From the NCBI GenBank assembly GCA_038915165.1, contig JBCLDE010000001.1, positions 6,234-70,233 on the forward strand: a DNA stretch of 64,000 nucleotides, in the 5' to 3' direction. The notes under the pieces were generated by a model, which made no database searches, was not told the DNA's origin, and worked only from the letters and a program-made list of their open reading frames with translations. Below are positions 32,655-55,111 of this stretch, piece by piece. Made by a program: the position numbers and the translations under genes. Each line of letters opens with the position of its first letter. The first letter of the stretch is position 1. The stretch comes from Candidatus Limnocylindrales bacterium. GTDB lineage: Bacteria > Chloroflexota > Limnocylindria > Limnocylindrales > CSP1-4.

Positions 32655-33389
32655 ATGGGCGACCTCGCGGAGCGGATGCGTACCAGACTCCTTCCGGCGA
32701 TCGTGACCGCGCTGGGTGTCGTACTCCTTGCGGGTGGCCTGCTGTCCATCGCCGCGCCGGTGACGGCCGATCCGTTGTCGAGCCCGGCGCCCACCGCCGT
32801 CGCGCTCGTGCCGTCCGAGCGCCCGCGCATCACGCTCCCACCGCCGTCATCCGCGGGACCGGTCGCCAGTCCGTCGATCCCGGCCGACCGTGTCGCGACC
32901 CGCGTCCGGATCTGGGAGCTCGGGATCGACCTGCCGGTCTTGCCGCCGGGCGGCCCGGACGATTACCCGCTGTGTGACGTCGCGCAGTACTTCCGCCACC
33001 CCAGTCTCGGGCAACCGGGGATGGGTCGGGCGACCTATCTGTACGCCCATGCCCGCGATGGGATGTTCGGGCCGATCCTCGAAGCCTCGAAGGTCCAGGA
33101 CGGCAACAAGATGCGCGGGATGGTCGTCGAGGTCTGGACGAGCGACGACCAGCGCTTCCTGTACGAGATCACGGAGGTCCGCCGCCACGTTCCCTTCGAC
33201 GACGTGTGGTTCGACGATCCGATGGCCGCGCCCGAGGAGGAGCTCTGGCTGCAGACCTCGGAAGGCCCCGCGGTCCCGAAGGGCCAGCCACCGAATCCGA
33301 AGCTCCAGGTTGTGGCGATGCCGCTCTCACAGGAGCCCGCTGACCACGCGGACGCCCACCCGGTCGCGAAACCGGTGGACTGCGGCTAG
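32655..33389 (+). CDS. membrane-anchored sortase-like protein with Ser at the expected catalytic Cys position
   Basis: The TM anchor is LLPAIVTALGVVLLAGGLL. The rest follows a sortase-like layout: RIWELGIDLPVLPPG, YLYAHARDGMFGPI (His), GMVVEVWTSDDQRFLYEITEV, and ELWLQTSEGP where sortases have L.TC.P. The call is by pattern only. Confidence 0.4.
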   Translation: MGDLAERMRTRLLPAIVTALGVVLLAGGLLSIAAPVTADPLSSPAPTAVALVPSERPRITLPPPSSAGPVASPSIPADRVATRVRIWELGIDLPVLPPGGPDDYPLCDVAQYFRHPSLGQPGMGRATYLYAHARDGMFGPILEASKVQDGNKMRGMVVEVWTSDDQRFLYEITEVRRHVPFDDVWFDDPMAAPEEELWLQTSEGPAVPKGQPPNPKLQVVAMPLSQEPADHADAHPVAKPVDCG

Positions 33390-34864
33390 GTCCCGCTCAC
33401 GGTCGTGATGGCCGCGGCCGCTGTCGCGGCCGCGTCGAGCAGGCCACCGGGGAACAGACCCAGCACGATCGTCAGCACGGCCGCCGCGGCGAGCCCGCCC
33501 CACATCAACGCGCCGTGCTTCGGCGCCGGCGCATCGCTGGCCGAATCGCGCATGAACATGTAGACGATGACCCGCAGGTAGTAGAACGCGGCGATCGCCG
33601 CATTGAGGACGACGATGACGGCCAGGATCGTCAGCGGGCCCCCGACCTGCACGGCCGCCAGGATGATGTTGGCCTTGGCGAAGAAGCCGGCCGTCGGCGG
33701 TATCCCGGTCAGTGACAACAGGAAGAGTGTCATGAGCACGCCCAACCACGGTTCGCGCCGGCCGAGCCCAGCGAACGTGGTCAGGCCGGAAGTGACGCCG
33801 ACCCGCTTCTGGAGTGCGGCGATGACCGCGAACGCGCCGAGGTTCATGAACGCGTAGGCGACACCGTAGAAGAGCAGCGCCTCGATGCCCGCGGACTGCT
33901 CCGGTGGGCCGGCGGCCCAGGCCGCCAGGCCGACCAGCATGTAGCCGGTATGGGCGATGGAGCTGTAGGCCAGCATCCGCTTGACGTTGTCCTGGGTCAG
34001 GGCGACGAGATTGCCGAGGGTCATCGTCACCGTCGCAAGCACGATCATGACCGGTAGCCAGAACTCGGCCAGCGGCCCCAGCGCCCCCACGAACAGGCGC
34101 AGGATCAGGGCGAAGGCGCCGACCTTGGGCAAGACCGACAGGTAGCCGGTGATGGGCGTCGGCGAGCCCTGGTAGGCGTCTGGCGTCCAGTAATGGAACG
34201 GCACGGCGGCGATCTTGAATGCGACGCCCGTCGTCAGGAAGGCGAGGCCCATCGCGAGGCCGGGCGAGAGCGGCGCCGTACCGGCGACCACCGCGGCCAG
34301 CGCCTGGGCGATGCCGTCGACGCGCGTCGTGCCGGTCAGGCCCCAGACGAAGGCGAGGCCGAACAGGAAGATCGCGGAGCTGAAGGAACCCAGCAGGAAG
34401 TACTTGATCGCGCCCTCGGTCGAATACGAGTCGGTCTTGTGGAAGCCGGCCAACAGGTAGCCGGGCAACACCATCAACTCCAGTCCGAGGAACAGCAGCA
34501 ACAGGTCTGTCGAGCCGGCGATGAGCATCGCGCCGGTCATCGCGAAGACGAGGAGGGCCGCGAACTCGGCCACCGGCAGCCCACGCGGCAGCAGGTAGTC
34601 CGGTCCGAATACGATGGTCATCGCGATGATGACGATGAACAGGACGTCGAGGAACGTCGTCAGCGCGTCGGCTCTGTAGACGCCATCGAACGCCGTCCCG
34701 CTGACCATGATGGTCAGGCCCGCGGTGATGGCCAGGCCGATGAGCGAGGTGCCCACCGCCAGCGTGCTGGAGCCGGGCCGGATCATATCGACGATGAGGA
34801 TCGCGGCTGCCGTGAGGACGCCCGCGATGAGCGGGCTGATGACGACCAGGTCCTGCCAGCTCAA
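33386..34864 (-). CDS. nuoN: NADH-quinone oxidoreductase subunit N (antiporter-like)
   Basis: The 492-aa polytopic protein reads FKIAAVPFHYWTPDAYQGSPTPITGYLSVLPK...MLAYSSIAHTGYML. TTGA overlap with nuoM. Confidence 0.9.
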   Translation of the reverse strand: MSWQDLVVISPLIAGVLTAAAILIVDMIRPGSSTLAVGTSLIGLAITAGLTIMVSGTAFDGVYRADALTTFLDVLFIVIIAMTIVFGPDYLLPRGLPVAEFAALLVFAMTGAMLIAGSTDLLLLFLGLELMVLPGYLLAGFHKTDSYSTEGAIKYFLLGSFSSAIFLFGLAFVWGLTGTTRVDGIAQALAAVVAGTAPLSPGLAMGLAFLTTGVAFKIAAVPFHYWTPDAYQGSPTPITGYLSVLPKVGAFALILRLFVGALGPLAEFWLPVMIVLATVTMTLGNLVALTQDNVKRMLAYSSIAHTGYMLVGLAAWAAGPPEQSAGIEALLFYGVAYAFMNLGAFAVIAALQKRVGVTSGLTTFAGLGRREPWLGVLMTLFLLSLTGIPPTAGFFAKANIILAAVQVGGPLTILAVIVVLNAAIAAFYYLRVIVYMFMRDSASDAPAPKHGALMWGGLAAAAVLTIVLGLFPGGLLDAAATAAAAITTVSGT

Positions 34865-36504
34865 TGTGCGGCCCCGCCTTCCGGCTGGAGCACAGGGCGG
34901 GACGGCTTGAGCAGGACCCAGCCCGTGCGCGCCACGATCCCGGCCAGGAGCAGGACGATCCCGCCGATGACGGCTGCGTCGGGGATCGCGATGGGTGCCG
35001 CCGGTGCGACCGCGTCGAGAGTCTCCGTGACGGTGCCCGAGAACAGGTTCAGGAGCAGGCCCGGCTGGACGCCGAAGATGACGACCAGCGTCGCGAGCGG
35101 GACGAGCGTCAGGATCTCCACAGCGGTCATGTCGGTCAGGCGGTTGCCGAGCCCGGTCAGGAAGTCGGACAGCTCACCGAACACCATCCGCCCGTACATG
35201 TACAGGAGGTAGCCGGCCGCCAGGATCATCACGAACGTCGCCACGGCAGCCGCCCCGGGGTTGGCCTGGAACGTGCCGACGAGGACCAGGAACTCACCGA
35301 CGAAGCCGGACAGGCCGGGCAGGCCGACGGAGGCGAAGACGAAGAACCCGAAGACAGCCGCCCAGACCGGGGTCCGACCGGCGAGGCCACCCATCCTGGC
35401 GATCGTCCGGTCATGCGTGCGTTCGTAGATGACGCCGACCAGCAGGAAGAGGGCGCCGGTGATGAGGCCGTGGTTGATCATCTGGAGGATCGCGCCCTGG
35501 AGGCCCTGCTGGGTGAACACGAAGATGCCCAGCGTCACGAAGCCCATGTGGCTGACCGACGAGTACGCGACCAGCCGTTTGAGGTCTGGCTGGACCAGCG
35601 CCACGATCGCGCCGTAGATGATCGCGATGAGCGACAGCACGATGATGACCGGCGCAAACGTTGCGGCAGCATCGGGATAGAGCGGCAGGGCGAACCGGAT
35701 GAAGCCGTACGCGCCGAGCTTGAGCATGACTGCGGCCAGGATGACCGAGCCTGCCGTGGGGGCTTCCGTGTGGGCATCGGGAAGCCAAGTATGGAACGGG
35801 AACATCGGGACCTTGATCGCGAAGGCCAGGAAGAAGGCCCCGAAGGCGGCCAGTTGAAGGCCGTCGGCGAAGCCGGGTGACGTCGCGTAGGCCCGCAGCA
35901 TCTCGAAGTCGAAGGCACCGATCCATGATCCGGCGTGGTCGGCCTGGTAGGCGTACGCGGTCGCCAGGATCGCGACCAGCATCAGCAGCGACCCGACCAG
36001 CGTGTAGAGCACGAACTTGATCGTGGCGTAGATCCGGTTGGCCCCGCCCCAGATCCCGATGATCAGGTACATCGGGACCAGGACGATCTCCCAGAAGATG
36101 TAGAACAGGAACGTGTCCAGGGCCAGGAAGACGCCGATCATCCCGACCTCCAGCACGAGGAAGGAGATCATGTATTCCTTGATCCGCGTCTGGATCGGCT
36201 TGAAGCTGGCCAGGATCGCGATCGCGGACAGGGTCGTGGTCAGGACCACCAGTGCGACCGAGATACCGTCCGCGCCAAGCTTGTAGCCGATGCCGAAGGC
36301 CGGGATCCACGAGTGGCTCTCGACGTACTGGAAGCCGGGCCGGCCGGGCAGGTAGCCGATGAGCAGGAAGAGCGACGCGATGAGTGCGAGCACGGCAAAG
36401 CCGAGCGCGACCCCCCGCGCCATCGTCGCCGGCAGGATGGCCACGGCCAGTGCGCCGACCAGTGGCAGGAAGGTGATGATCGAGAGGAGCGGCAGGCCGG
36501 TCAT
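34861..36504 (-). CDS. nuoM: NADH-quinone oxidoreductase subunit M (start ATG 36504 or GTG 36510)
   Basis: The product reads FAIKVPMFPFHTWLPDAHTEAPTAGSVILAAVMLKLGAYGFIRF...LVAYSSVSHMGFV. Confidence 0.9.
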   Translation of the reverse strand: MTGLPLLSIITFLPLVGALAVAILPATMARGVALGFAVLALIASLFLLIGYLPGRPGFQYVESHSWIPAFGIGYKLGADGISVALVVLTTTLSAIAILASFKPIQTRIKEYMISFLVLEVGMIGVFLALDTFLFYIFWEIVLVPMYLIIGIWGGANRIYATIKFVLYTLVGSLLMLVAILATAYAYQADHAGSWIGAFDFEMLRAYATSPGFADGLQLAAFGAFFLAFAIKVPMFPFHTWLPDAHTEAPTAGSVILAAVMLKLGAYGFIRFALPLYPDAAATFAPVIIVLSLIAIIYGAIVALVQPDLKRLVAYSSVSHMGFVTLGIFVFTQQGLQGAILQMINHGLITGALFLLVGVIYERTHDRTIARMGGLAGRTPVWAAVFGFFVFASVGLPGLSGFVGEFLVLVGTFQANPGAAAVATFVMILAAGYLLYMYGRMVFGELSDFLTGLGNRLTDMTAVEILTLVPLATLVVIFGVQPGLLLNLFSGTVTETLDAVAPAAPIAIPDAAVIGGIVLLLAGIVARTGWVLLKPSRPVLQPEGGAAH

Positions 36505-36512
36505 GTCCACGC

Positions 36513-38467
<1,955 letters not shown>

Positions 38468-38468
<1 letters not shown>

Positions 38469-38797
38469 CACCGGCTCATCGCATCGTACTCGTCGACCAG
38501 CGGCGTCTTCTTGTTGCGGTAGATGGCGATGACGATGGCCAGCCCGACCGTCGCTTCGGCCGCGGCCACGGCCATGACCATGAGCGCGATGACCGAGCCC
38601 TGGGCGGACAACGGCTGCGCGCCGGCGGGAGTGACCCCGAACGCACCGAACGCGACGATGGCGAGGTTGACGCCGTTGAGCATCAGCTCGATGGACATCA
38701 GCATGCTGATCGCGTTGCGCCGGGCCAGGAACCCGAACGATCCGATGGAGAACAGGAGGCTGGCCAGGATGAGGTAGGCGTCGAGGGAGTCGCTCAC
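38468..38797 (-). CDS. nuoK: NADH-quinone oxidoreductase subunit K
   Basis: The 109-aa product reads [37 protein letters not shown]. The GTG start overlaps the nuoJ stop (GTGA). Confidence 0.9.
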
Positions 38798-39387
38798 GAC
38801 GGCCCACCTGGTTCGCGCTTGGCCAGGAAGACGCCGCCGACGACCGCGGCCAGGAGCAGCACGCTGACAACCTCGAACGGCAGGACGAAGTCGCTGAACA
38901 GCACGCTCGACATGGCGTCCGTCGCCAGGCGGACCCGCTCCGGCAGCTCGCCCCAGTCCGTGGCGGCGATGGCCAGGGCGACGACGACGGCGATGACGGT
39001 GGAGGCGATCGCGGCCGGCACAGCCTGAGTCTGGAAGACCAGCCGGCTCGGCGCGTCCTTGGTCTGGGTCAGCATGATCGCGAACAGGATGAGGACGCTG
39101 ATCGCGCCGATGTAGATGATGACCTGGGCGGCCGCCAGGAGCGGCGCACCGATCAGGACGTAGATGCCGGCCAGGGCACCGAAGCAGACGATCATGGCCA
39201 GGCCGCAGCGGATGATGTCGCGCATCGTCACGACGAGCAGGCCGGCCCCGATCATGACCGCGGCGAGGAGCCAGAACAGGGCGTCCGCCCAGTCCTGGCC
39301 GAGGAAGACCAGCATGATCGCCGCGACGCCCATGACCAGGCCGACGACGGCGAGCGCCAGGATGATCGGGATCGATCGCTGCAGCAC
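38794..39387 (-). CDS. nuoJ: NADH-quinone oxidoreductase subunit J (start GTG 39387; ATG 39444 alternative would overlap the upstream gene)
   Basis: The product reads [58 protein letters not shown]. Confidence 0.8.
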
Positions 39388-39397
39388 GTCCCGTCGT

Positions 39398-41980
39398 CTA
39401 CTCGGGATGGATCGGTGCGATGGCGGCTCCATGCCCGTTGCCATTGGCGGGGACGCCCCCGATGGTCGGCGGGAGCATGGGCAGCATCCGCGTCGGGTCG
39501 ATGATGCGTCCTTCCGCGGCCGCTGTGGACGCCCAATCGCGCTCGCGCCGGATGTAGGTGACTTCAGTCTCGCGGTCGATCGCCGCGATGGCCATCAGAT
39601 CGATCATCGGGTTCGCGCGGCTCGTGTCGGCGAGCTCGATGTCCGGACCATGGCGCAGTGCGTCGTATGGGCAGGCGTCCACGCAGATACCGCACAGGAT
39701 ACAGCGGCTCTCGTCGACCTCGAACTTCTGGAGGATGCGCGGCTTGAGCATCAGGGCGCCGGTCGGGCAGGTCTCGGCGCACCGTCCGCACGAGACGCAC
39801 GGGGTGTCGTTGAGGCTCATGTCCAGCGGCGTCGTGACGAGCGTGTCGAAGCCGATCCGCATGAAGTCGTAACAGGCCGCCCCGACGACCTCGGCGCACA
39901 CGGTCGCGCAGCGGCCGCAGTCGATGCAGCGTGACGGCTCGCGCAGGATGAAGGCGTGCGAATCGTCCCGGATGTAGTCGTGGTTGGTGCCGGTGAAGCG
40001 GTTCTCGGTGACGCTCCGGTAGCCGGCCCCGGCGTTGTGCTGCGGTTCGAGGGTCTGGAGCGTGGTCCCGTACTCGATCCCAAGGCGACGCAGGTCGCAG
40101 AAGCCGATCGCCTCGCAGGTGCACTGCAGGCAGCGGGTCGACTCGGCGACCGCTTCCTCGCGGGTATATGGCAGTTCGTACTCGATAAAGCTGTTTCTGC
40201 GTTCCTCCGCCTCCAGCACCTTCATCCGGTAGCGCGGTTCCTTGGCCTCCATGGTGAACGGTACGATGGACAGGAACTCGGGCTGCGGCTCGGCCAGTGT
40301 CTGGCGGGTCCGGATGGCGCTCAGGTCGAGGCCCTTCATGTGGGCGTCGACAGCGTACGCCGCGCGGCGGCCCTCGGCGCAGGCCTGCACGACGGTCGCG
40401 GACCCGATCCGCACGTCGCCGGCCCCGAACACGCCCGGGCGGCCGGTCTCGAAGGTCACCGCGTCCGCCCTGAGCCGGTGCAGTATCGTCTTCTCCGGTC
40501 CCTCGTTGCCGGGCTGTCCCAGCCAGTCGAGCTCCGGCCCCTGGCCGATGGCCAGCAGGACACGGTCGCATGGGATGATGAATTCGGTGCCAGGGGCCGG
40601 TTCGGGCCGGCGGCGGCCGGACGCATCCGGTGCACCCAGGACCATCCGGATGAACTCGACGCCCGTGACGTTGCGGGCTTCGTCGGCGATGACACGGACC
40701 GGACCGGCCTGGAAGATGGCGGTGACGCCCTCCTCGATCGCCTCGTGGACCTCGTTGGAAGCCGGCATGTCCTTCATGTCGCGGCGATAGACCAGCGTTA
40801 CTGCCTTGGCGCCCTGGCGGACGGAGATCCGCGAGCAGTCCATGGAGGTGAACCCACCACCGATGACCACGACCCGCTTGCCGGCGTGGTCCGGGTAGGG
40901 CAGGCCGAGGGTCGCCGTGCGCAGGTACTCCAGGCCCTCGATACATTCGGGCGCGTCGTCGTCCGGGATGCCCAGCTTGTTCGTGTCGTAGCAGCCGATC
41001 GCAATGAGGACGGAATCGAAGCCCTGGAAGGTCAGGTCATCCAGCGTGAAGTCGCGGCCGAAGCCGGTATTGCAGACGATCTTGCCGCCGAGACGCGTGA
41101 TCGATTCGTACTCCGCTTCGAGGACTTCGACCTTCGGCAGGCGGTATTGCGGGATGCCGTACCGGAGCATGCCGCCCGGCGCCGGGTCGCGCTCGAAGAC
41201 CGTCACATCGTGGCCGGCCAGGAGCAGGTAGAACGCGGCGCTCATGCCGGCCGGCCCCGAGCCGATGATCGCGGCTCGTCGTCCCGAGGGTGCCTGGCGC
41301 TCGAACGGCAGTGGTGGGTCCACCCCGTCGTCGAGCATCGACTTCAGGACCTGGTCGCCGGCGTAGCGGTGGCTGTCGCGGATGGCGATCGCCTCGTCGA
41401 CCTCGTCGCGTCGGCAGTGATCCTCACACGGCGCCGGGCAGACCCGCCCGAGGATGCTCGGGAACGGGATCGTCCGCTTGAAGATCCGCGCCGACTCGCG
41501 CCAATCGGCCTGTGCGTTGGCCTTCAGGAAGCCCGGGATGTCGATGGAGCTGGGGCACTTGTTCTGGCAGGGCGGCAGGCAATAGGCGTTGTGGTCGGAG
41601 AAGATCAGCTCCAGGTTCGTCCGGCGCAGGCGGCGCACCTCTTCGGTCTGGGTCTGGACCTTCATCTCCGGCGCGCACACGCGCGCGCACGAGATCGGCG
41701 GGTGCTCCTCGCCCTCGACCTCGACGACACACATCCGGCAGGCCCCGAAGCCGGGCAGCTTCGGCTCGTAGCACAGGGTCGGGATCTCGATGCCGTTGGC
41801 GCGGCACACCTCGAGGATCGTCTGGCCCTCGAACCCTTCGAGGATGCGGCCGTCGACCTCGATGCGGATGCGCGGGGTCGACTGCGGGCGCTGCGGCGCC
41901 TGAGCCTCCAGCAGTCGCTCGGCGAGCGACTGCTGGTCCAGTGCGGGGCGGCTTTGGGGGCGCGTGATCAGGTCGGCCAT
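39398..41980 (-). CDS. 860-aa Fe-S flavoprotein fusion: NuoG-type N-terminal [2Fe-2S] domain, GltD/NfnB-type NAD(P)H-FAD module, NuoG-type [4Fe-4S] region, NuoI-like 2x[4Fe-4S] tail
   Basis: The 2Fe-2S region is RIRIEVDGRILEGFEGQTILEVCRANGIEIPTLCYEPKLPGFGACRMCVVEV. The GltD part reads CPSSIDIPGFL...GRVCPAPCEDHC, AAIIGSGPAGMS and VVVIGGGFTSMD. The 4Fe-4S region is SRCIDCGRCATVCAEV...CVSCGRCAETCPTGAL. The tail CILCGICVDACPYDALRHGPDIELAD resembles the NuoI C-terminus. Confidence 0.8.
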   Translation of the reverse strand: MADLITRPQSRPALDQQSLAERLLEAQAPQRPQSTPRIRIEVDGRILEGFEGQTILEVCRANGIEIPTLCYEPKLPGFGACRMCVVEVEGEEHPPISCARVCAPEMKVQTQTEEVRRLRRTNLELIFSDHNAYCLPPCQNKCPSSIDIPGFLKANAQADWRESARIFKRTIPFPSILGRVCPAPCEDHCRRDEVDEAIAIRDSHRYAGDQVLKSMLDDGVDPPLPFERQAPSGRRAAIIGSGPAGMSAAFYLLLAGHDVTVFERDPAPGGMLRYGIPQYRLPKVEVLEAEYESITRLGGKIVCNTGFGRDFTLDDLTFQGFDSVLIAIGCYDTNKLGIPDDDAPECIEGLEYLRTATLGLPYPDHAGKRVVVIGGGFTSMDCSRISVRQGAKAVTLVYRRDMKDMPASNEVHEAIEEGVTAIFQAGPVRVIADEARNVTGVEFIRMVLGAPDASGRRRPEPAPGTEFIIPCDRVLLAIGQGPELDWLGQPGNEGPEKTILHRLRADAVTFETGRPGVFGAGDVRIGSATVVQACAEGRRAAYAVDAHMKGLDLSAIRTRQTLAEPQPEFLSIVPFTMEAKEPRYRMKVLEAEERRNSFIEYELPYTREEAVAESTRCLQCTCEAIGFCDLRRLGIEYGTTLQTLEPQHNAGAGYRSVTENRFTGTNHDYIRDDSHAFILREPSRCIDCGRCATVCAEVVGAACYDFMRIGFDTLVTTPLDMSLNDTPCVSCGRCAETCPTGALMLKPRILQKFEVDESRCILCGICVDACPYDALRHGPDIELADTSRANPMIDLMAIAAIDRETEVTYIRRERDWASTAAAEGRIIDPTRMLPMLPPTIGGVPANGNGHGAAIAPIHPE

Positions 41981-42016
41981 GGTCGCCTTAGTGCCGCGCC
42001 GACATCGGCCACAAAC

Positions 42017-43852
42017 TCACCGGGATCCTCCTGCCACACCGGGGGTGCCGGCCAGCTGCGCGTCGCGGTACGACTCCTTGTAGAGCCGGCCGTCACTCGA
42101 GATCTCCTGGAGCTCGAACCGCTCCATCGTAATGGCGTCGAACGGGCAGCGCTTGACGCACAGCGCGCAGCGGATGCAGCTCTCCTCGTCGATGATCATC
42201 GCCCCGCCGTTGTCCCAGCCGTAGGCCTCCTCGAGCTCGGGCAGCGGCCCCTCGGATTTGAGCTGGTTGATGTCGACCAGGTGGATGACGCCGACGGGGC
42301 AGACATCGGCACAGGCGCCGCACAGGACGCAGCGGAACGGGTCGAACCAGATGTTGTAATTGCACATGAGACAGCGGATCGACTCGGCGACGGCGGCATT
42401 GGCGTCGTAGCCAAGCTCAACCGGCGTGTTGAAGTTGACGACCGGTTCGGTCGATGGCATCCGCGCGGTCACCGGCAGCATCGGGATGTGCTGGCGCGGC
42501 AGGACGTCGTAGAACTCGGGCATGTCGTGGCGCCACGAGCTGGTGATCTTGACGTTGGCGCTGACCGAGACGTCGGTCCGGCCGGCCAGGTAGCGATCGA
42601 TGGCGTAGGCGCACTTCTTGCCGTGGCCGGCCGCCTCGACCAGGGTCGTCGGGCCGGTCACGAAGTCGCCGCAGGCGAAGACGCCCCGGACGTTGGAGGC
42701 GTACGTGGCGGGGTCCACCTTGACCCGGCCGCGGTTGATCTGGAACTTCGCCTCGATCGGCAGGAAGGTCAGGTCGGCCGCCTGTGAGACGGCGGGGATG
42801 ACGGTCTTGGCCGGGATGACGAACTCGGAGCCCGCGATCGGCACCGGGGAACGGCGGCCGGACGCGTCCGGCTCACCCAACCGGTTACGGATGAACTTGA
42901 CGCCGCTGACCTTGCCGTCCTCGCCCAGGATCTCGATCGGGCTGGCCAGGAACTCCAGGCGCACGCCTTCACGCTCGGTCTCGCCCAGCTCCTCTTCGTC
43001 GACGACGAGCTCCGAGCGGGTGCGCCGGTAGACGATCGAGACGCGCTCGGCGCCGTGGCGCAGGCTGGTGCGCGAGCAGTCCATCGCGGTGTAGCCGCCA
43101 CCGATGACCACGATGTCGGTCCCGACCTCCAGGGGCTGGCCGAGGTTGGCCTGCTTCATGAAATCGACGCCGTACTGGACACCCTCGAGATCGGCGCCGG
43201 GGATGTCCAGGGCCACCGCGTCCATGGCGCCGGCGGTGATCGCGATCGCGTCGAAGTCCCGCTGGAGTTGCTCGAACGTGATGTCCACCCCGATCGTCGT
43301 GTCATACACGAACCGGACGCCCAGCCGCTCGATCAGGCGCACGTCGTTCTCGATCGCCTCACGCGGCAGGCGGAAGGCCGGCACGCCGATGAGCATCGTC
43401 CCGCCACCGTACGGCAGGCTGTCGAAGACGGTGCACTGGTAGCCCGCGGTGGCGAGCTCGCGGGCGACGCTCAGACCGGCCGGTCCGGCACCGACGATCG
43501 CCACGCGCTCGTCGCGCGGCGTGATCTGGGGCATCACGTCCGGGATGCCCGACGCCTCATGCCATTCGACGAGGAAGCGCTTCATCGCCCGGATCGCCAG
43601 TGGCCGATCGATGTCGCCACGACGACAGGCCCGCTCGCACGGCGCCGAGCAGACATACGAACACATCGCGGCGACCGGGTTCGTCTCGCGCGCCAGGATG
43701 TAGCCCTCCTCGAACCGGCCTTCGGCGGCAAGGTTGAGGTAGCCACGGCAATTCGTCCCGACCGGGCACGCTTCCTGGCACTCGATGTTGCACTGGAGCC
43801 AGGAGGCGTCGACGGGCTGGACGAGGAATTCCTGGGGCTGCTCGATGGCCAA
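42017..43852 (-). CDS. 611-aa GltD/NfnB-type NAD(P)H oxidoreductase with C-terminal 2x[4Fe-4S] ferredoxin domain (TTG start)
   Basis: The product reads CQEACPVGTNC...CSYVCSAPCERACRR, VAIVGAGPAGLS, IVVIGGGYTAMD and FACGDF. The C-terminus carries CVLCGACADVCPVGVI and CIRCALCVKRCPFDAI. Confidence 0.8.
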   Translation of the reverse strand: MAIEQPQEFLVQPVDASWLQCNIECQEACPVGTNCRGYLNLAAEGRFEEGYILARETNPVAAMCSYVCSAPCERACRRGDIDRPLAIRAMKRFLVEWHEASGIPDVMPQITPRDERVAIVGAGPAGLSVARELATAGYQCTVFDSLPYGGGTMLIGVPAFRLPREAIENDVRLIERLGVRFVYDTTIGVDITFEQLQRDFDAIAITAGAMDAVALDIPGADLEGVQYGVDFMKQANLGQPLEVGTDIVVIGGGYTAMDCSRTSLRHGAERVSIVYRRTRSELVVDEEELGETEREGVRLEFLASPIEILGEDGKVSGVKFIRNRLGEPDASGRRSPVPIAGSEFVIPAKTVIPAVSQAADLTFLPIEAKFQINRGRVKVDPATYASNVRGVFACGDFVTGPTTLVEAAGHGKKCAYAIDRYLAGRTDVSVSANVKITSSWRHDMPEFYDVLPRQHIPMLPVTARMPSTEPVVNFNTPVELGYDANAAVAESIRCLMCNYNIWFDPFRCVLCGACADVCPVGVIHLVDINQLKSEGPLPELEEAYGWDNGGAMIIDEESCIRCALCVKRCPFDAITMERFELQEISSDGRLYKESYRDAQLAGTPGVAGGSR

Positions 43853-43909
43853 GCGGGGCGTGCCTTTCCCTGGTTCTCGGGGCTCGGGTGCGAACGGACG
43901 ATCGGCGCA

Positions 43910-43945
43910 GCGGCCGATGCGGCCGATGCGGCCGATGCGCCGAAT
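43910..43945. repeat. 9-bp tandem repeat gcggccgat x3 perfect + 1 degenerate, in the divergent promoter region between the nuo-like operon and sufB
   Basis: Read directly from the sequence: units at 43910, 43919 and 43928, and a degenerate one at 43937. The array lies 58-93 nt upstream of the TTG start at 43852. Confidence 0.9.
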
Positions 43946-44212
43946 CTACCATCCGTCCCGTCAGGACGTGCACGGCAGGGGGATCCGGCGGGCATTGCGG
44001 GCGAGAGGAGAAGTCAGCAGACGCCCCGTCGGAGGCAGTTCCGGATGGACCAGCCGAGCCGGGTGATCGTCATGAAGGTCGGCGTTCACCTAGCCTGGAT
44101 CCACCGGTAGCAGGGACTGATTCGTCGCTGGCCTGGGTGGCGGGCTCACTGTCGAACCGCGTCCGGTTTCGCGCAGCTTTGCCCCTCTCTATCTCTCATC
44201 CCGACCCGTCGC

Positions 44213-44241
44213 TTGACACTTCGGCGCGTAATCCCGACAAT
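44213..44241 (+). promoter_or_regulatory. putative sigma70-type promoter for sufB (TTGACA-17 nt-GACAAT)
   Basis: TTGACA lies at 44213..44218 and GACAAT at 44236..44241, in a locally AT-richer spacer about 80 nt upstream of the sufB ATG. This is sequence inspection only. Confidence 0.3.
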
Positions 44242-44320
44242 CTGACTCGGAATTAGAAACAAGCCTCGACCAGGCCGGGCCGCGGCGCCTCGGGTGCCGC
44301 TACACAGCACGGGAGATCTC

Positions 44321-45733
44321 ATGACAGCGACCACAGCAACCCGCGAGATCGTCACCGACCAGCGCGACCAGTTCGCCTTCCACGACGACATCACCTACCT
44401 CGTCGAGACGAAACGCGGCTTGACGCGCGAGACGGTCGAGGAGATCAGCGGCTTCAAGAACGAGCCGGACTGGATGCTCCAGTTCCGCCTGCGCGCCTAT
44501 GAGCACTTCCTCAAGCGCCCGATGCCGGCGTGGGGCGGCGACCTGTCGAAGATCGACTTCGGCAACATCGTCTACTACCGCAAGCCGTCGGCGCGCGAAG
44601 AGAAGTCGTGGGACGACGTGCCGGAAAAGATCAAGGCCACCTTCGAGCGGCTGGGCATCCCCGAGGCGGAGCGCAAGTTCCTGGCCGGCGTGGGCGCGCA
44701 GTACGACAGCGAGGTCGTCTATCACTCCGTCAAGGAAGAACTGACCAAGATCGGCGTCGTGTTCATGGGCACGGATCAGGCGCTCATCGACTACCCGGAG
44801 CTCTTCCGCAAGTACTTCGCCACGGTCGTCCCGGCGGAGGACAACAAGTTCGCGGCGCTCAACGCCGCGGTCTGGTCGGGCGGCTCGTTCGTCTATGTGC
44901 CGAAGGGTGTCGAGGTCCCGCTCCCGCTGCAAGCCTACTTCCGCATCAACGGCGAGAACACCGGCCAGTTCGAGCGGACGCTGATCATCGTCGACGAGGG
45001 CGCCAAGGTCCACTACATCGAGGGCTGCACCGCGCCGGTCTATGCGACCGAGTCGCTCCATGTCGCCGTCGTCGAAGTCGTCGCGCTGGCCGGCTCCAAG
45101 GTCCGCTACACGACGATCCAGAACTGGTCGAACGACGTCTACAACCTGGTCACCAAGCGCGCCCACGCCCACGCCAACAGCAACGTGGAGTGGATCGACG
45201 CGAATACCGGCTCGCGCCTCACCATGAAGTACCCGGCCATCTACCTGCGCGGCGAGGGCGCCACGGCCGACATCATCAGCGTCGCCGTCGCGGGCAAGGG
45301 CCAGCATCAGGACACCGGGGCCAAGGCTGTCCACCTGGCACCCAACACCCGCTCGCGGATCGTGAGCAAGTCCGTCTCCAAGGATGGCGGCCGGTCGACC
45401 TACCGCGGCTCGCTCAAGGTGTTGCCGGGGGCCACGAATGTCGTCGCCAGCGTGCGTTGCGACGCGCTCATGCTCGACGACATCAGCCGCAGCGACACCT
45501 ACCCGTACATCGACATCCAGGAAGACGACACGACGATGACCCACGAGGCCACGGTCGGCAAGGTCAGCGCCGACCAGGTCTTCTACCTGATGAGTCGCGG
45601 CCTGACGGAGAACGAGGCGACGAACCTCATCGTCCAGGGCTTCCTGGAGGTCTTCACGAAGGAACTGCCGATGGAGTACGCCATCGAGTTCAACCGGCTC
45701 GTGAAGCTCGAGATGGAGGGGTCGCTCGGATGA
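44321..45733 (+). CDS. sufB: Fe-S cluster assembly protein SufB
   Basis: The product reads ...[32 protein letters not shown]...EGCTAPVY...[17 protein letters not shown]...[17 protein letters not shown]...[21 protein letters not shown]. Confidence 0.9.
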
Positions 45734-46056
45734 CGACTGAGGCGGCGGACGTCGCCGACGCCTCGCACTCGTCGCCGAAACCCGGACCCCGTCCGGTCCG
45801 GCGGGCGCCCACCGACCTCTTCCGGTAGGCGCCTACCGACCTCCCGTTCTCCTTCGCCGACCGGGCGCTCATCGAGCGTCTCGGGACGGAACGCGGTGAG
45901 CCCGCCTGGTTGCGTGCCGAGCGCACGGCCGCCGCTGACGCGTTCGAGGCGTTGCCCCTTGAGCCGAACCGTCTCTACACGACCTATCTCGACCTGCGTC
46001 TCGTGGACGTGATGACGGTCGTGCCCGCCGCACGCGAGTTGCGGCGAACTACGTAG
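45730..46056 (+). pseudogene. sufD: truncated sufD remnant (about 100 codons, internal TAG, then sequence changes character)
   Basis: The ATG overlaps the sufB stop (ATGA). An in-frame TAG lies at 45826..45828 between two copies of a 15-bp repeat (gcgcccaccgacctc / gcgcctaccgacctc, 24 bp apart). The SufD-like N-terminus then reads FSFADRALIERLGTERGEPAWLRAERTAAADAFEALPLEPNRLYTTYLDL and ends at TAG 46054..46056. No sufC/S/U follows. Confidence 0.6.
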
Positions 46057-46167
46057 CCTGTGCAACTTTCGCTTGGAGCCGAGGTTCAGCTGGGCCGTTA
46101 CCGCGAGCGGTACTCTGACCCTACGAGAAGCCGCTTATGAGGAACCGATTCAAGGGGAGACAGGGAG

Positions 46168-46509
46168 ATGCAGACACTAACGCAGATGAAGTGCGTCGCG
46201 TGCCGCAAGGACGCACCGACCGTGACGGATGCCGAGATCGCCGAATTTCATTGCCAAGTCTCTGGTTGGGACATCGTTGAGCTCGATGGACTCAAACGCC
46301 TGAGACGCGTCTTTTCAGTGGACGATTTTGCGCAGGCGTTGGAATTCACGAAGAAGGTTGGCGCGCTTGCAGAGGCAGAGGGGCATCACCCTGCGCTGCT
46401 GACCGAATGGGGTAGGACGACGGTCACATGGTGGACGCACAAAATCAAGGGCCTGCATCGCAACGATTTCATCATGGCGGCGAAAACGGACGAGCTGTAT
46501 CAGCCATGA
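46168..46509 (+). CDS. pterin-4-alpha-carbinolamine dehydratase (PCD/DCoH)
   Basis: The 113-aa product reads ...[62 protein letters not shown]-type RBS lies upstream. The gene sits in a visibly lower-GC patch. Confidence 0.85.
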
Positions 46510-46682
46510 CTCGATCCGTCAGACGGGGCCCGGCCTCGATGCCGGGGAGACGGCGAGGTCGTGACTTCTGGTTGCAAGGAGCACAACCTGGAGTTTACGC
46601 ATCCCACACGGTCTGGCTACCCAGCGAGAAGACAGGCGCGACGTTCCCCACATCGTGCGTGACGAGCCTGGACGACCTGTAG

Positions 46683-47882
46683 CTAGCCGGCTCTGAACCG
46701 TGCGGCCTCGTCCGACCCGCGCGTCGCGTCGCCCGCGCTGTAGGAGTGCGCTCCGGCTCCGGCGAGCTTGCCGCCGTCGACGATCAGGTACTCCTCGCGG
46801 ATCGGGCGGTTGTCAAACCAGCACTCCAGGATCTCCCGGACACCGGCCGCGTAGCGAGCCTGCGCCGAGAGCGTGGTGCCGGACGTGTGCGGGGTCATCG
46901 CGTGATTGGGCATCGTCCGCCAGGGATGATCCTGTGGCGCGGGCTGGGGGAACCAGACATCGCCGGCATAGCCCGCCAGCTGGCCGCTCTCGAGCGCCCG
47001 CACCACGGCGTCGCGGTCGCAGATCTTGCCGCGCGCCGTGTTGACGAGGTAGGCGCCGCGCTTCATCTGCCCGATAAGATCGTCATCGAAGAGGTGCTCG
47101 GTCTCGGGATGCAGCGGCGTGTTGATCGTCACGACGTCACACACACGCACGAGCGACTCGACGTCCGGGTGATACGTGACGTCGAGGGCCTGCTCGAGGG
47201 CGGGAACACGGTGGCGGTCAGTGTAATGCAGCCCGACCTCGAACGGCTTCAGCCGTCGCAGTACCGCGGAGCCGATCCGCCCGGCCCCGACGGTGCCAAC
47301 CTGCATCCCCTCCAGGTCGTAGGCGCGGGACACGCAGTCCGCGATATGCCAGCCGCCGGCGACGACCCGCTGGTAGGACGGGATGTAGTTGCGGACGAGC
47401 GACAGGATCAGCATCACGACGTGCTCGGAGACGCTGATGCTGTTCGAGTACGTCACCTCGGCGACGGTGATGCCCCGGTCGATCGCGGCCTGGAGATCGA
47501 CGTGGTCCGAGCCGATCCCGGCCGTCACTGCGAGCTTCAGCCGCGGCGCCTTGGCGATCCGCTCCGCCGTCAGGTAGGCGGGCCAGAACGGCTGCGAGAT
47601 CACGATCTCCGCCTCGGGCAGCTCGCGCTCGAAGACGGAGTCCGGCCCGTCCTTGTCAGAGGTCACGATCAGCCGGTGCCCGCGCTCCTCGAGGAACCGC
47701 CGCAGCCCGAGCTCGCCCGACACGCTCCCGAGCAGCTCGCCCGGCGTGAAGTCGATGCGCTCCGGCGAGGGCGTGGCCTGACCATCGGGGTAGCGCTCGA
47801 TCCTCGGGATCGCGTCACGGGCGTACGATGTCGGGTAGCCTGCCACGGGGTCGTCGTAGAGAATGCACAGGATAGTAGCCAT
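46683..47882 (-). CDS. fdh: NAD-dependent formate dehydrogenase
   Basis: The product is nearly colinear with the Pseudomonas sp. 101 / Mycobacterium vaccae FDH sequences as I remember them: ILCILYDDPVAGYPTSYARD, TPGELLGSVSGELGLR, VTSDKDGPDSVFERELPEAEIVISQPFWPAYLTAERIAKA, TAGIGSDHVDLQAAIDRGITVAEVTYSNSISVSEHVVM, GTVGAGRIG, GDVWFPQPAPQDHPWR. Confidence 0.9.
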   Translation of the reverse strand: MATILCILYDDPVAGYPTSYARDAIPRIERYPDGQATPSPERIDFTPGELLGSVSGELGLRRFLEERGHRLIVTSDKDGPDSVFERELPEAEIVISQPFWPAYLTAERIAKAPRLKLAVTAGIGSDHVDLQAAIDRGITVAEVTYSNSISVSEHVVMLILSLVRNYIPSYQRVVAGGWHIADCVSRAYDLEGMQVGTVGAGRIGSAVLRRLKPFEVGLHYTDRHRVPALEQALDVTYHPDVESLVRVCDVVTINTPLHPETEHLFDDDLIGQMKRGAYLVNTARGKICDRDAVVRALESGQLAGYAGDVWFPQPAPQDHPWRTMPNHAMTPHTSGTTLSAQARYAAGVREILECWFDNRPIREEYLIVDGGKLAGAGAHSYSAGDATRGSDEAARFRAG

Positions 47883-48102
47883 CTGGATGCCCCTTGCCTA
47901 TCACCGAGTCGAACGCGATCGCCATCATACGCCGCTGTTGCCGTCTGGGCCGGCGGATGCAGGCGACGCACACGAATTCGTGGGTAGGCATGGCGGGGAC
48001 CCTGATGACCGGTGTGATGCCGCGCAGGCGACGTCGGCCAGAATATGAGCTAGCGGCTCGAGCGCCCACCCCATCACGCGAGCCCACGGAGGTCAAGGCA
48101 TC

Positions 48103-48237
48103 ATGCTTGCCGAGCCCACGGTCCTGATCGGTATCGGGGGAATCCTGGGAGCCAATGCCCGTTATCTCGAGGGCCACCGTGGGCAGCGCCCTGACCACCC
48201 GTTCAAGCACGAGACAAGGGTGTGGCTCGGGCGGTAG
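48103..48237 (+). pseudogene. crcB: crcB (fluoride channel) N-terminal remnant
   Basis: A GGAGG RBS precedes MLAEPTVLIGIGGILGANARYL, the typical CrcB start with G-G-x-x-G-x-x-x-R-Y. The rest is non-membrane sequence ending at TAG 48235..48237. Only about 22 codons look CrcB-like. Confidence 0.45.
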
Positions 48238-48399
48238 GACTCGGGAGCCCTCGATGGGTCACCCTACTGCTCGTCTCACTCCGCACGGATAGGGCGGCTC
48301 TGCCCGGCGAAGCAGGAAGCCCAACGGGGACTTCGACCGTCCCGGGCGGCACAAGTCTGCGGGCGCGGCGGGCAGAGCCAGGCTCTGAGCCGGGCGGCC

Positions 48400-48996
48400 T
48401 TACTTCTTGGCAGCCGTGTAGTACGGGTTCTCGCCGGAGGCGTGATCGGTCGTGTCGACGATCGCGATGATCTCGGGCACGGCCTGCCTGATCGAGACCT
48501 CGACGCCCTGGCGAAGCGTGACGTCCACCTGGGCGCAGCCGACGCAGCCGCCGCCCATCGAGATGAAGGCGGTTCCGTCACGGACCTCGAGCAGGTCGAT
48601 ATAGCCGCCGTGGGCCGCGACGCCCGGGTTCACCTGGGTGTCGAGCACGAACTGAACGCGTGCCGCGAGCGGATCGGCCCAGCCGGCGTTCGGGTTGTCG
48701 ATCGCGATGGCGCCGCCGACCGTGGACGCGTCCAGTCCGATCGTGGCGCCGCGCAGCTGGTCGGCGTCGGCGGCCGGCACGTACACCACGCCCTGGGGCG
48801 TTTGGACCACGAGGTCGGTCGGGTCGACCTCGTTGGGCGAAACGAGGGAGAAGCTGTAGGTGAAGCTCGGCCCGCGGTGCCCGGTGATCGCCACGCGCAG
48901 TCGCGCGTCCGGGTGGCCGGCGCTTTTCGCGGCGGCCGCGATCTTGGCCTGGGCTTCGGGGGTGATGAGCAGGAGTGGCACGTCCACAGGCGGCAT
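48400..48996 (-). CDS. NfuA-like Fe-S carrier (degenerate A-type N-domain + Nfu C-domain)
   Basis: The N-terminal half reads ITPEAQAKIAAAAKSAGHPDARLRVAITGHRGPSFTYSFSLV. The C-terminal half reads VNPGVAAHGGYIDLLEVRDGTAFISMGGGCVGCAQVDVTLRQGVE, the Nfu CxxC motif. Confidence 0.8.
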   Translation of the reverse strand: MPPVDVPLLLITPEAQAKIAAAAKSAGHPDARLRVAITGHRGPSFTYSFSLVSPNEVDPTDLVVQTPQGVVYVPAADADQLRGATIGLDASTVGGAIAIDNPNAGWADPLAARVQFVLDTQVNPGVAAHGGYIDLLEVRDGTAFISMGGGCVGCAQVDVTLRQGVEVSIRQAVPEIIAIVDTTDHASGENPYYTAAKK

Positions 48997-49104
48997 CCTA
49001 CGCCAGTTGCCTCCCGAGGTCGAGCGCGGGATCCCCGGTCGCGCGAGGTCGTGGGCGCCGGCTGGCGCTGGTGATCTGGCCGCGCGAGGCGCAGAATCGA
49101 GACG

Positions 49105-49500
49105 ATGACCCGGATCCTGCTGCTCCTGCCGACGCGCACCTACCGGACCGCCGACTTTCTAGCCGCGGCGGATCGGTTGGGCCTGGAGGTCGTGGTCGGG
49201 TCGGAGCGGCGGAATGCGCTCGAAGCACTGACCGGCGGCGGGACGCTCCGGGTCCAGCTGGGCGACCCGGCGCGTGGCGCTGCGACGATCGAGCGGTACG
49301 CCGCGGACCGTCCGCTCGATGCCGTGATCGGCGTCGACGACGGATCGACGCTGGTCGCCGCCATGGCGGCCGAGCGGCTGGGCCTGCCGCACAACCCGGT
49401 CGCAGCAGTCGAACGAAGCCGGGACAAGGCACGGGCACGCCAGACCTTCGCGGCGGCCGGCCTGCCGACACCCGGCTTCGCAACGCATCCTCGTCGGTGA
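49105..49500 (+). pseudogene. 5' fragment of an ATP-grasp enzyme gene (pre-ATP-grasp domain only)
   Basis: The fragment reads MTRILLLLPTRTYRTADFLAAADRLGLEVVVGS...VIGVDDGSTLVAAMAAERLGLPHNPVAAVERSRDKARARQTFAAAGLPTPGF and then hits a stop. Full-length relatives continue for about 250 more residues. No continuation is seen in any frame. Confidence 0.5.
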
Positions 49501-49558
49501 CAGCGAGTCCGAGATCAGGATGGTAGCGGTCGGCACCGTGCAGCGATAGGCTGGTGCC

Positions 49559-50359
49559 ATGCTCACGCGGATCGACCACCTCGTCATCGCCTGCGCAGAC
49601 CCTGATGCGGCGGCCGCCGACCTCGAACGCACGGTCGGGCTGGCTCCCGGCGGTGGCGGACGCCACGACGCGCTCGGGACGTACAACCGGCTCGTCTGGC
49701 TAGGGGATTCCTACCTCGAGCTGATCGGGGTGTTCGACCGCGACCTAGCCGCCCGATCGTGGATCGGCGCGCCATCGCTCCGTGCACTCGACGGGGGAGG
49801 TGGGCTCGCGACGTGGGCCGTTGCCACAGACGCGATCGATGAGGACGTCGCCCGGCTGAACGCCCGGGGCGCGAACCTGGCAGCGCCGATCGACGGCGAG
49901 CGCCGACGGCCCGACGGCGCGGTCGTACGCTGGCGGCTCGCCGCGCCTCGGGAGCTCGGACCGGCAACCCCGCCGTTTCTCATCGAACACGACCCGACGG
50001 CCGCCGAGTGGACGGCGCCAGAGCGTGCCGCCCGAGCCGCCCAGACCCACCCACTCGGGGCGTCCATCCGGCTCGAGACGCTCGAGATCGACGTACCCGA
50101 TATCGCTCGAACGAGCGGCGCGCTCTTTCGGACCGTCGGGATCGGGCCGTTCCGTCCATCGCTGTCCGGCCGTCGCACCCGCGACGCGCCCATCGGCCGG
50201 CAGACGGTCCGGCTCCGGGCCGCGATGGGGCTCGTCACCGTGGCGACATGGCCCGTTGCCACGATCCATCTGCGGGCTGTGCCCGTGGACTTCACCGCCA
50301 CACCGGTCGAGCCACGCACGGTCGAGTTCCTGGGGTGTCGGTTCATCGTCGCGCCGTGA
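49559..50359 (+). CDS. glyoxalase-like (VOC superfamily) domain protein
   Basis: The product reads MLTRIDHLVIACADPDAAAADLERTVGL...HDALGTYNRLVWLGDSYLELIGV...PPFLIEHD. Confidence 0.65.
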   Translation: MLTRIDHLVIACADPDAAAADLERTVGLAPGGGGRHDALGTYNRLVWLGDSYLELIGVFDRDLAARSWIGAPSLRALDGGGGLATWAVATDAIDEDVARLNARGANLAAPIDGERRRPDGAVVRWRLAAPRELGPATPPFLIEHDPTAAEWTAPERAARAAQTHPLGASIRLETLEIDVPDIARTSGALFRTVGIGPFRPSLSGRRTRDAPIGRQTVRLRAAMGLVTVATWPVATIHLRAVPVDFTATPVEPRTVEFLGCRFIVAP

Positions 50360-50394
50360 GGCCCGCCTAGCTTGCACCCCGTCTCCGCGACCAC

Positions 50395-51000: not shown

Positions 51001-51029
51001 TCAGCTAAGATACATTCAAGAGGCACGCC

Positions 51030-53000: not shown

Positions 53001-53169
53001 GGAGATCGTCGGCGAGACGACGACGTCAGCTCGACCGCCGATCCACTGCCGGGGACGGCGAGCCGATGGTGCCCGCGCTTCACTTCGCAGCAGCCAAAAT
53101 CCACTTTTGATCAAACCCGCAGCGGTGAAGCGATGGCTCGCTCCCGTCGACGGCCGGGGCCGCAATCAA

Positions 53170-53305: not shown

Positions 53306-53332
53306 TCGAATCTGGATTTCCGAACCCCACGG

Positions 53333-55072: not shown

Positions 55073-55111
55073 CGTCGATCGGTGTACGGTGGAACCGCAC
55101 GGAGGTGTCGC

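Follow-up and report, generated by a model that had tools for sequence, protein, structure and literature searches.

A StnC-like protein in the place of NuoG and NuoI in a complex I operon of Limnocylindria, divided by a rearrangement in one small clade

Introduction

Can the membrane arm of respiratory complex I be driven by GltD-type flavoproteins alone? This question is raised by a stretch of 64 000 nt (hereafter the window; G+C content ~69 %) from a Candidatus Limnocylindrales assembly (accession number GCA_038915165.1, contig JBCLDE010000001.1, positions 6234 to 70 233), in which the genes nuoJ, K, L, M and N follow two genes for iron–sulphur (Fe-S) flavoproteins of 611 and 860 aa, here called G611 and G860. 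An earlier note on this DNA had considered an NAD(P)H- or ferredoxin-linked input for a complex I-like pump or, alternatively, a rearrangement product. We propose, and consider it very likely, that the locus belongs to a split 13-gene complex I operon in which the StnC-like protein G860 replaces both NuoG and NuoI.

The seven-gene cluster

The cluster and the only other complex I gene in the window, which lies at its edge, are as follows.

33386-34864, minus strand: nuoN (PF00361)
34861-36510, minus strand: nuoM (PF00361; start set by comparison with the gene call in the related locus L087)
36513-38471, minus strand: nuoL (PF00361 and PF00662)
38468-38797, minus strand: nuoK (PF00420, E 1.5e-24)
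38794-39387, minus strand: nuoJ (PF00499, E 7e-32)
39398-41980, minus strand: G860, 860 aa, NuoG/NuoI-slot subunit, StnC/NfnA(Bfu)-like (PDB search, Foldseek, synteny)
42017-43852, minus strand: G611, 611 aa, GltD/NfnB-type Fe-S flavoprotein
63572-64000, minus strand: 3' end of nuoF, last 142 codons, gene cut by the window edge (PF10589 NADH_4Fe-4S, E 1.2e-20)

Much of what the earlier note had described is found again here, i.e. the seven co-directional open reading frames on the minus strand with their coordinates, the divergent sufB gene upstream of G611 (44294-45733), and the dinucleotide-binding strings and CxxCxxCxxxCP motifs in both large proteins. The GltD-type module that it had assigned to both is recovered by Pfam as Fer4_20 and Pyr_redox_2, together with Fer4, and G860 additionally carries Fer2_4. 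The nuoJ–N family domains (Oxidored_q3, Oxidored_q2 and three Proton_antipo_M proteins) stand in complex I order. Regarding the 4-nt overlaps, GTGA at 38794 and TTGA at 34861 hold, but the ‘ATGA’ at 38468 does not: the nuoK/nuoL junction reads GTGATG and allows either a GTGA overlap of 4 nt or an ATG overlap of 1 nt. Likewise, the claim that the peripheral genes occur nowhere in the 64 kb is right for nuoA, B, C, D, H and a NuoE-type gene, but the 3' end of nuoF, 86 % identical to the NuoF of the related locus L003 (tblastn), is there on the same strand; it is the only visible part of the proximal complex I genes. Nor does the cluster itself lack canonical peripheral components, as had been stated, G860 having both NuoG-like and NuoI-like parts.

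Gene order in relatives

As an exact-sequence look-up of G860 returned no record, its genomic context was taken from relatives. One genome per species was scanned, which yielded >500 loci with close relatives of G860; the counts given here refer to the best 80 of these, 81-93 % identical to G860 and all from Chloroflexota metagenome-assembled genomes (MAGs) labelled Candidatus Limnocylindria or Limnocylindrales. In every one of the 80, nuoJ-K-L-M-N lies downstream of G860. Its immediate upstream neighbour is nuoF in 75 and G611 in a single locus (L002), while three loci are too short to tell. The genes of the quinone module (Q-module) and NuoH (nuoB, C, D and H) are contiguous with G860 in 60-75 of the 80 relatives. 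By Pfam, the genes upstream in L003 are those for NuoB, NuoC, NuoD, NuoH (446 aa), a protein X (226 aa) and NuoF, and NuoA was observed in L012. The ordinary operon of Limnocylindria is thus nuoA-B-C-D-H-X-F-G860-J-K-L-M-N, with 13 genes and without a separate nuoG or nuoI, and the cluster in the window is the distal half of this respiratory complex I operon, interrupted between nuoF and G860.

The synteny search that the earlier note had suggested therefore separates its two leading proteins. The combination of G860 with nuoJKLMN is kept in 80/80 loci and, overall, in two phyla, but G611 accompanies it only in a small clade. The idea of a GltD-type input tied to the nuo genes survives in part, i.e. 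G860 is conserved in the NuoG/NuoI slot, but it accompanies the Q-module and does not replace it.

Two MAGs contributed two G860 contigs each: L039 and L045 both carry the full operon, while L051, from the same MAG as L035, is only a 3.3-kb fragment. These are probably strain variants binned together and not two operons per genome. One protein of 1075 aa (P0034, from a 1.57-Mb ENA contig) was called as a G860–NuoJ fusion with PF00499, likely as a result of an assembly frameshift or read-through.

Domain structure of G860

G860 is composed of the following parts.

41645-41872, minus strand: aa 37-112, NuoG/HydA-type [2Fe-2S] domain (PF13510, E 5e-19; TIGR01973 positions 1-96)
40331-41581, minus strand: aa 134-550, inserted GltD/NfnB-type module [Pfam; AlphaFold2 predicted local distance difference test (pLDDT) 80-95; motif conservation]
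39746-40132, minus strand: aa 617-745, Fe-S motifs common to StnC and NuoG (alignment to StnC/NfnA; PF22117 Fer4_Nqo3, weak)
39572-39739, minus strand: aa 748-803, C-terminal half of NuoI (TIGR01971 positions 71-115 of 121)

The earlier note had asked for profile and structure searches on both large proteins; these identify G860 as NfnA/StnC-like and match G611 to residues 99-574 of NfnA. In the PDB sequence search, aa 37-774 of G860 matched NfnA of the Caldicellulosiruptor NfnABC (9bov_A, E 3e-155) and StnC of the Sporomusa ovata StnABC (8oh5_C, E 2e-133), a third solved relative being NfnA of Thermococcus sibiricus (9n5u_A). The same three structures came out at the top, with a probability of 1.00, when the AlphaFold2 model of G860, built from a 33-sequence alignment, was searched with Foldseek; all proteins retrieved in this way were NfnA/StnC or of the GltD type. 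C70, C81, C84 and C98 of the [2Fe-2S] domain are invariant. The inserted module comprises Fer4_20 with two [4Fe-4S] motifs, a FAD GxGxxG motif and a second Rossmann fold with GGGFTSMD...YRR, and AlphaFold2 confidently models its core as a GltD fold that is intact. It is followed by the motifs CxxCxCx5C and then CxxCxxCxxxC ... CxxCxxCxxxCP, all cysteines of which are invariant.

Up to this point, i.e. through CxxCxxCxxxCP-TGAL, G860 shares every cluster motif of StnC, and afterwards the two diverge: StnC enters an FdhF-like domain with CxxCxxxC, while G860 has ‘DESRCILCGICVDACPYDAL...ELADTSR’, and the alignment ends at around residue 703 of the 1172 residues of StnC. Thus, a second CxxCxxCxxxCP motif and an ‘ELA..SR’ tail stand in place of the molybdopterin-like domain of StnC and NuoG. 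Searched alone, this segment found its best single-stretch PDB matches in NuoI/TYKY/NDUFS8/NdhI of bacterial, mitochondrial and chloroplast complex I. It is kept in the Thermoleophilia relatives described below and is absent from StnC-like proteins.

By family models, G860 is neither a NuoG nor a NuoI in the usual sense. Lacking the molybdopterin domain, it reaches 93.5 bits against the NuoG model TIGR01973 (cutoff 470), and against the NuoI model TIGR01971 it scores 49.7 bits (cutoff 113), below what a one-polypeptide NuoI would need. Of the characters of StnC/NfnA, it has the [2Fe-2S] domain, the GltD-like module and the NuoG/HydA-type clusters, but not the FdhF/molybdopterin-like domain. 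Its ratio of non-synonymous to synonymous substitution rates (dN/dS) is 0.12-0.18. Across both phyla, at an overall identity of 41-47 %, every Fe-S cysteine, the FAD GxGxxG and the ‘ELA..SR’ tail are retained without change. Judged by sequence and gene order, G860 is a complex I subunit in place of both NuoG and NuoI.

StnC-like proteins of ~800-850 aa were considered as further complex I forms and rejected. Six of them (P0129, P0157, P0166, P0198, P0222 and P0229) all end in ‘...NN(I/V)DHCARL’; they appear to be calls of GltD-containing formate dehydrogenases cut at a probable selenocysteine UGA codon and not short forms. Among the short StnC-like hits, only P0138 is a true relative of G860.

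A split NuoI and the Thermoleophilia operons

The missing half of NuoI is found next to nuoH. Gene X, located between nuoH and nuoF (L003 7981-8661; L053 8027-8707; L092 7311-8072; L081 7330-8091), encodes positions 1-63/66 of TIGR01971 with the first CxxCxxCxxxCP motif, followed by NuoE, and is therefore complementary to the positions 71-115 present in G860. The same complementarity holds in Thermoleophilia (Actinomycetota), where the loci L081, L082 and L092 show the order nuoA-B-C-D-H-X-F-G*-J-K-L-M-N, again without nuoI, G* being a protein of 816-824 aa that is 41-47 % identical to G860. Here, X (253 aa) consists of the N-terminal half of NuoI and a complete NuoE, and NuoF, with 636-638 aa (L081 8088-10004; L092 8084-9994), has extra Fe-S domains of the Bfu/StnB type, i.e. 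an N-terminal 2Fe-2S_thioredx and a C-terminal Fer4. The clusters of the Bfu partners BfuB and BfuC are thus present in the Thermoleophilia version and absent from that of Limnocylindria.

In ferredoxins with two [4Fe-4S] clusters, each cluster is held by three cysteines of one motif and a fourth from the other. It is natural to suppose that X and G860 rebuild the N6a/N6b ferredoxin in trans.

Several points weigh against the proposed explanation. The trans-assembly of NuoI from X and G860 is deduced from the complementarity of the sequences only, and the C-terminal Fe-S part of the G860 model (aa 619-860) is uninformative, with a pLDDT of <35. Since the Limnocylindria NuoF is of ordinary length (441 aa, PF01512 and PF10589 only) and X is devoid of the thioredoxin-like [2Fe-2S] (N1a) domain, the Limnocylindria module is not a full Stn. 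The second Rossmann motif and the YRR are degenerate in some Thermoleophilia G*, namely P0138 and P0393 (GDGFAAAE...SPCAR), as compared to the intact GGGFTAMD...YRR of P0440. As for the genome studied here, its nuoA–D and nuoH would lie beyond position 64000, outside the sequence seen, and a promoter scan found no promoter-like (sigma-70-like) site upstream of G611 on the minus strand. Finally, our counts concern loci and not whole genomes, which may hold separate canonical copies of nuoG, nuoI and nuoE elsewhere.

With NfnABC and StnABC, its closest solved relatives, being soluble, G860 might instead belong, alone or with G611 and NuoE/F, to a soluble Stn/Nfn-type transhydrogenase that is merely encoded in or near the nuo operon and contributes no subunit to complex I; the extra Bfu-type domains of the Thermoleophilia NuoF would fit such an enzyme, and the public annotation of G860 goes no further than ‘FAD-dependent oxidoreductase’ or ‘formate dehydrogenase major subunit’. 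We regard this as very improbable, given that the gene keeps its place before nuoJ (80/80) and after nuoF (75/80) in Limnocylindria and likewise in the three Thermoleophilia loci, in an operon without nuoG and nuoI, and that the FdhF-like tetramerisation domain of Stn is replaced by half of a NuoI, the complementary half being fused to the neighbour gene of nuoH.

Even as a true complex I subunit, G860 could carry its GltD module as a structural relic without turnover of NADPH, just as the NuoG of ordinary complex I already carries a vestigial molybdopterin-like domain and cluster N7. The degenerate motifs of P0138 and P0393 point in this direction, and the NADPH site may in fact have been lost in part of the Thermoleophilia G* family, so that NADPH use would not be universal. 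We nevertheless judge a relic unlikely: in the Limnocylindria G860 and in P0440 the FAD motif, GGGFT(S/A)MD, YRR and the six cysteines of the GltD module are conserved, dN/dS is 0.12-0.18, and the fold is modelled intact.

The rearrangement and its scars

In the window, ~21.6 kb of Fe-S-assembly and TCA-cycle genes plus G611 separate nuoF from G860. The features that bear on the origin of this arrangement are as follows.

41981-42016, minus strand: chimeric 36-nt G611–G860 junction (sequence comparison with L085 and L001)
63472-63574, minus strand: decayed and internally deleted relic of the nuoF–G860 spacer plus ~48 codons from the start of G860, directly 3' of the nuoF stop
44294-63373, mostly plus strand: intervening housekeeping genes, ~19 kb, none of complex I (Pfam)
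43853-44293, no strand: divergent sufB/G611 spacer (blastn against L083-L086)

The spacer between G611 and G860 is composed of two parts. Its start, ‘GTTT’, corresponds to the first bases of the cytochrome b gene that follows G611 elsewhere, and ‘GGCGCGGCACTAAGGCGACC’ agrees with the final ~20 nt of nuoF and the nuoF–G860 spacer of relatives. The counterpart lies behind nuoF, where 63519-63574 matches 41936-41990 (93 %) and 63472-63530 matches 41830-41888 (85 %); these are the direct repeats D4 and D8, spaced ~21.6 kb apart. Because of the chimeric junction and the relic of the G860 5' end after nuoF, the two genes must formerly have been adjacent in this lineage, and the ~21.6 kb came to lie between them through an event that also duplicated the junction. 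As six independent MAG contigs, which represent two species-level groups (G860 98 and 93 % identical), share the order of sufB divergent to G611-G860-nuoJ, this order is real, though confined to a small clade. Neither a tRNA gene nor a long inverted repeat was found at the breakpoints.

With this, the opening question can be answered. That G611 and G860 suffice on their own as an input from NAD(P)H or ferredoxin and drive a NuoJKLMN pump without NuoB, D and H and without quinone chemistry was suggested by the tight packing of the seven genes and the lack of nuoA/B/C/D/H/E in the window, and is now hardly tenable. The window holds nuoF on the same strand, the Q-module genes are contiguous with G860 in relatives (75/80), the junction scars tell of a recent split, G860 has only half of a NuoI and needs the other half encoded next to nuoH, and G611 is found at the nuo locus in one small clade only. 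The contiguity in relatives, i.e. a recent breakpoint, is what the earlier note itself had named as speaking against a pump without NuoB, D and H, and it was its other suggestion, a rearrangement product, that is borne out by the contiguous nuo operon of the relatives and the recombination scars.

In its present position, G611-G860-nuoJKLMN presumably forms a separate transcription unit, as the gene spacing suggests, which probably has its start, and presumably a new promoter, in the 440-bp sufB/G611 spacer. A scan of the minus strand for promoters and terminators gave nothing above chance.

The intervening genes comprise sufB and those for pterin-4a dehydratase, 2-hydroxyacid dehydrogenase, NifU, glyoxalase, aconitase, an SDH/FRD-type (succinate dehydrogenase/fumarate reductase) flavoprotein, a Kgd-type 2-oxoglutarate dehydrogenase, DUF1801, ThyX, two Fe-S assembly proteins and a ferredoxin, of which 2-hydroxyacid dehydrogenase and NifU are on the minus strand. 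The 2-oxoglutarate dehydrogenase (56424-59957, 1177 aa) has its E2 acyltransferase domain fused ahead of E1, which we take to be the Kgd-type arrangement known from Actinobacteria. Between the glyoxalase and aconitase genes there is a decayed partial copy of the 3' part of this gene (50395-50852 versus 58872-59575, 70-83 % over ~460 nt), a further sign of past duplication or rearrangement in the region. The sufB/G611 spacer contains a perfect tandem of three 9-mers (GGCCGATGC, plus strand) at 43912-43938. In L087 (98 % identical), ~217 nt of this spacer are absent (query positions 194-410).

Origin of G611

By Pfam, G611 has two [4Fe-4S] motifs, a FAD site, an NADPH-type site with YRR and a C-terminal ferredoxin domain with two [4Fe-4S] motifs. 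With four clusters and FAD, it is a paralogue of the G860 core (~33 % identity), and its best PDB match is to residues 99-574 of NfnA (9bov_A, E 3.5e-106). Scores against the GltD-type models of NCBIfam stay below their cutoffs, and neither in the window nor in any locus examined is there an adjacent NfnA or GltB gene, with which a stand-alone GltD-type subunit would be paired.

The G611 family is 85-92 % conserved across Limnocylindria, but G611 has no conserved association with the nuo genes. Elsewhere it is the first gene of an operon with a divided cytochrome b, in the order G611-cytochrome b(N)-cytochrome b(C)-Rieske-cytochrome c/cupredoxin (L083 10001-15008; L084 10001-15008; L085 10001-15464), and overlaps the cytochrome b gene by 4 nt in all three loci. 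The window contains no cytochrome b or Rieske gene. Since homology to other genomes upstream of the window G611 is limited to ~17-54 nt of leader (blastn against L083-L086), just this one gene was relocated. By these comparisons, G611 is a lineage-specific newcomer at the nuo locus, moved from a Rieske/cytochrome b operon.

Could the newcomer have become an additional input or accessory subunit of complex I in this clade, functionally paired with G860? It is true that only its reading frame and a leader of ~50 nt were moved, to a position 36 nt upstream of G860, and that the arrangement was kept in two species-level groups, with G611 under purifying selection (dN/dS 0.10 there, 0.10-0.17 in all). 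We nevertheless judge such a role improbable, as G611 is translationally coupled to cytochrome b elsewhere and shows no evident feature for docking to complex I, and as its conservation is explained equally well by service in trans to the Rieske/cytochrome b complex.

Comparison with known systems

StnC has been described as resembling NuoG, with a GltD-like domain for NADPH and FAD inserted into it; electrons of NADPH pass via its clusters to the FMN of the NuoF-like StnB, and its FdhF-like C-terminal domain mediates the formation of the Stn tetramer (PMC10482914). Like G860, StnC and NfnA (PDB 8OH5, 9BOV and 9N5U) possess the [2Fe-2S] domain, the inserted GltD module and CxxCxC...C with two [4Fe-4S] motifs, aligned over aa 37-774, and their genes also adjoin NuoE-like and NuoF-like genes. 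Unlike them, G860 sits in a nuo operon and has the C-terminal half of NuoI instead of the ~470 aa of the FdhF/molybdopterin-like domain, and in Limnocylindria there are no Bfu-specific clusters in its NuoF partner and no N1a in X.

With the canonical 14-subunit complex I (Thermus Nqo3/Nqo9, Escherichia coli), the relatives share nuoJ–N, the Q-module genes and nuoF, and G860 shares with NuoG and NuoI the [2Fe-2S] domain, the N4/N5-like motifs and the second cluster motif of the NuoI type. The gene order differs, i.e. A-B-C-D-H-X-F-G*-J as opposed to A-B-C-D-E-F-G-H-I-J, and the canonical enzyme has neither a second flavin and nucleotide module in its G subunit nor a NuoI that is split and fused to two subunits.

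‘Nuo-Bfu’, predicted by Schut et al. 2022 (PMC9304861) for Deferribacteres, Proteobacteria, Planctomycetes and Nitrospirae, is a 14-subunit (A–N) complex I that includes a BfuABC module. It likewise represents a complex I-like operon with a HydABC-related NADH module, comparable to the Thermoleophilia NuoF with its extra domains. However, its description mentions neither a GltD/NADPH module nor a split NuoI, whereas the operons described here have 13 genes, belong to Chloroflexota and Actinomycetota and encode a large subunit of the Nfn/Stn type.

An 11-subunit complex I, nuoABCDHIJKLMN, has been reported in actinobacteria and chloroflexi (Moparthi & Hagerhall 2011, PMC3144371). Its backbone order is the one found here, except that here an E-F-G* cassette lies inside nuoI, with in-frame fusions at both ends. 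It is tempting to see in the order A-B-C-D-H-[I_N::E]-F-[G*::I_C]-J...N the product to be expected if an stnABC-like cassette had been inserted into nuoI of such an 11-gene operon.

Flavoproteins related to gltD also replace NuoI in mbx-like operons (Degli Esposti 2015, PMC4758237), where, as here, a GltD-type flavoprotein occupies the NuoI position in an operon of the complex I family. Those operons encode ferredoxin:NAD(P)+ systems of the Mbx/Mrp type without NuoE/F/G-type genes, whereas the GltD module here is part of a NuoG-like protein in a full nuo operon. For G611, the relevant comparison is with the Rieske/cytochrome b complexes of anammox bacteria, which have an NAD(P) oxidoreductase subunit (Kuste4570, Kustd1483) with FAD and around four Fe-S clusters (PMC12954380). 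The likeness concerns the domain content as described, and G611 homologues hold a similar operon position, while the G611 of the window is detached from cytochrome b and Rieske genes. The Limnocylindria operon hints at a bc-type complex linked to NAD(P)H, similar to the one proposed for anammox bacteria.

Searches of the open-access literature brought up neither a GltD-containing NuoG nor a split NuoI nor a complex I variant of this kind.

Proposed working of the complex

From gene content and order, homology, the conservation of cofactor motifs and the split of NuoI, the enzyme may be pictured as follows. X, NuoF and G860 would form the peripheral input module, and the two NuoI halves would reassemble in trans into the N6a/N6b ferredoxin, connecting the NuoE/F/G860 module with cluster N2 in NuoB and with quinone. 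NADH would be oxidised at the FMN of NuoF, while NADPH would enter or leave at the FAD of G860 via two clusters, as in StnC, being either oxidised or formed in reverse or by transhydrogenation. NuoH, A, J, K, L, M and N would pump protons. In the clade studied here, this enzyme would be encoded by two transcription units, with nuoF and presumably the Q-module genes ~20 kb upstream on the same strand.

More tentatively, it is possible that the complex I of Limnocylindria and Thermoleophilia as a whole obtained its input module from an stnABC- or Nfn/Bfu-type cassette placed in nuoI, independently of NuoEFG, and works with two flavin sites (FMN/NADH and FAD/NADPH) as an NADPH-oxidising or transhydrogenating proton-pumping quinone reductase.

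Significance

That the pump appeared to lack a Q-module is an artefact, due to an operon split specific to one lineage. What it led to is a form of complex I not met before, in which NuoI is split and one subunit is of the StnC type with NADPH and FAD sites. On the usual view, the NADH module of complex I was acquired a single time, as NuoEFG; the order of the genes and the two NuoI halves that complement each other now point to a second, independent recruitment of a Bfu-type transhydrogenase, by which a respiratory proton pump would have gained an NADPH/FAD site. The reassembly, if true, would be a natural example of a ferredoxin subunit that was split and put together again across two polypeptides. 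G611, for its part, draws attention to bacteria other than the anammox group in which a GltD-type flavoprotein is encoded in a Rieske/cytochrome b operon. If the NADPH site of G860 is active, it would give very abundant uncultured soil bacteria a direct entry of NADPH into, or exit from, the quinone pool.

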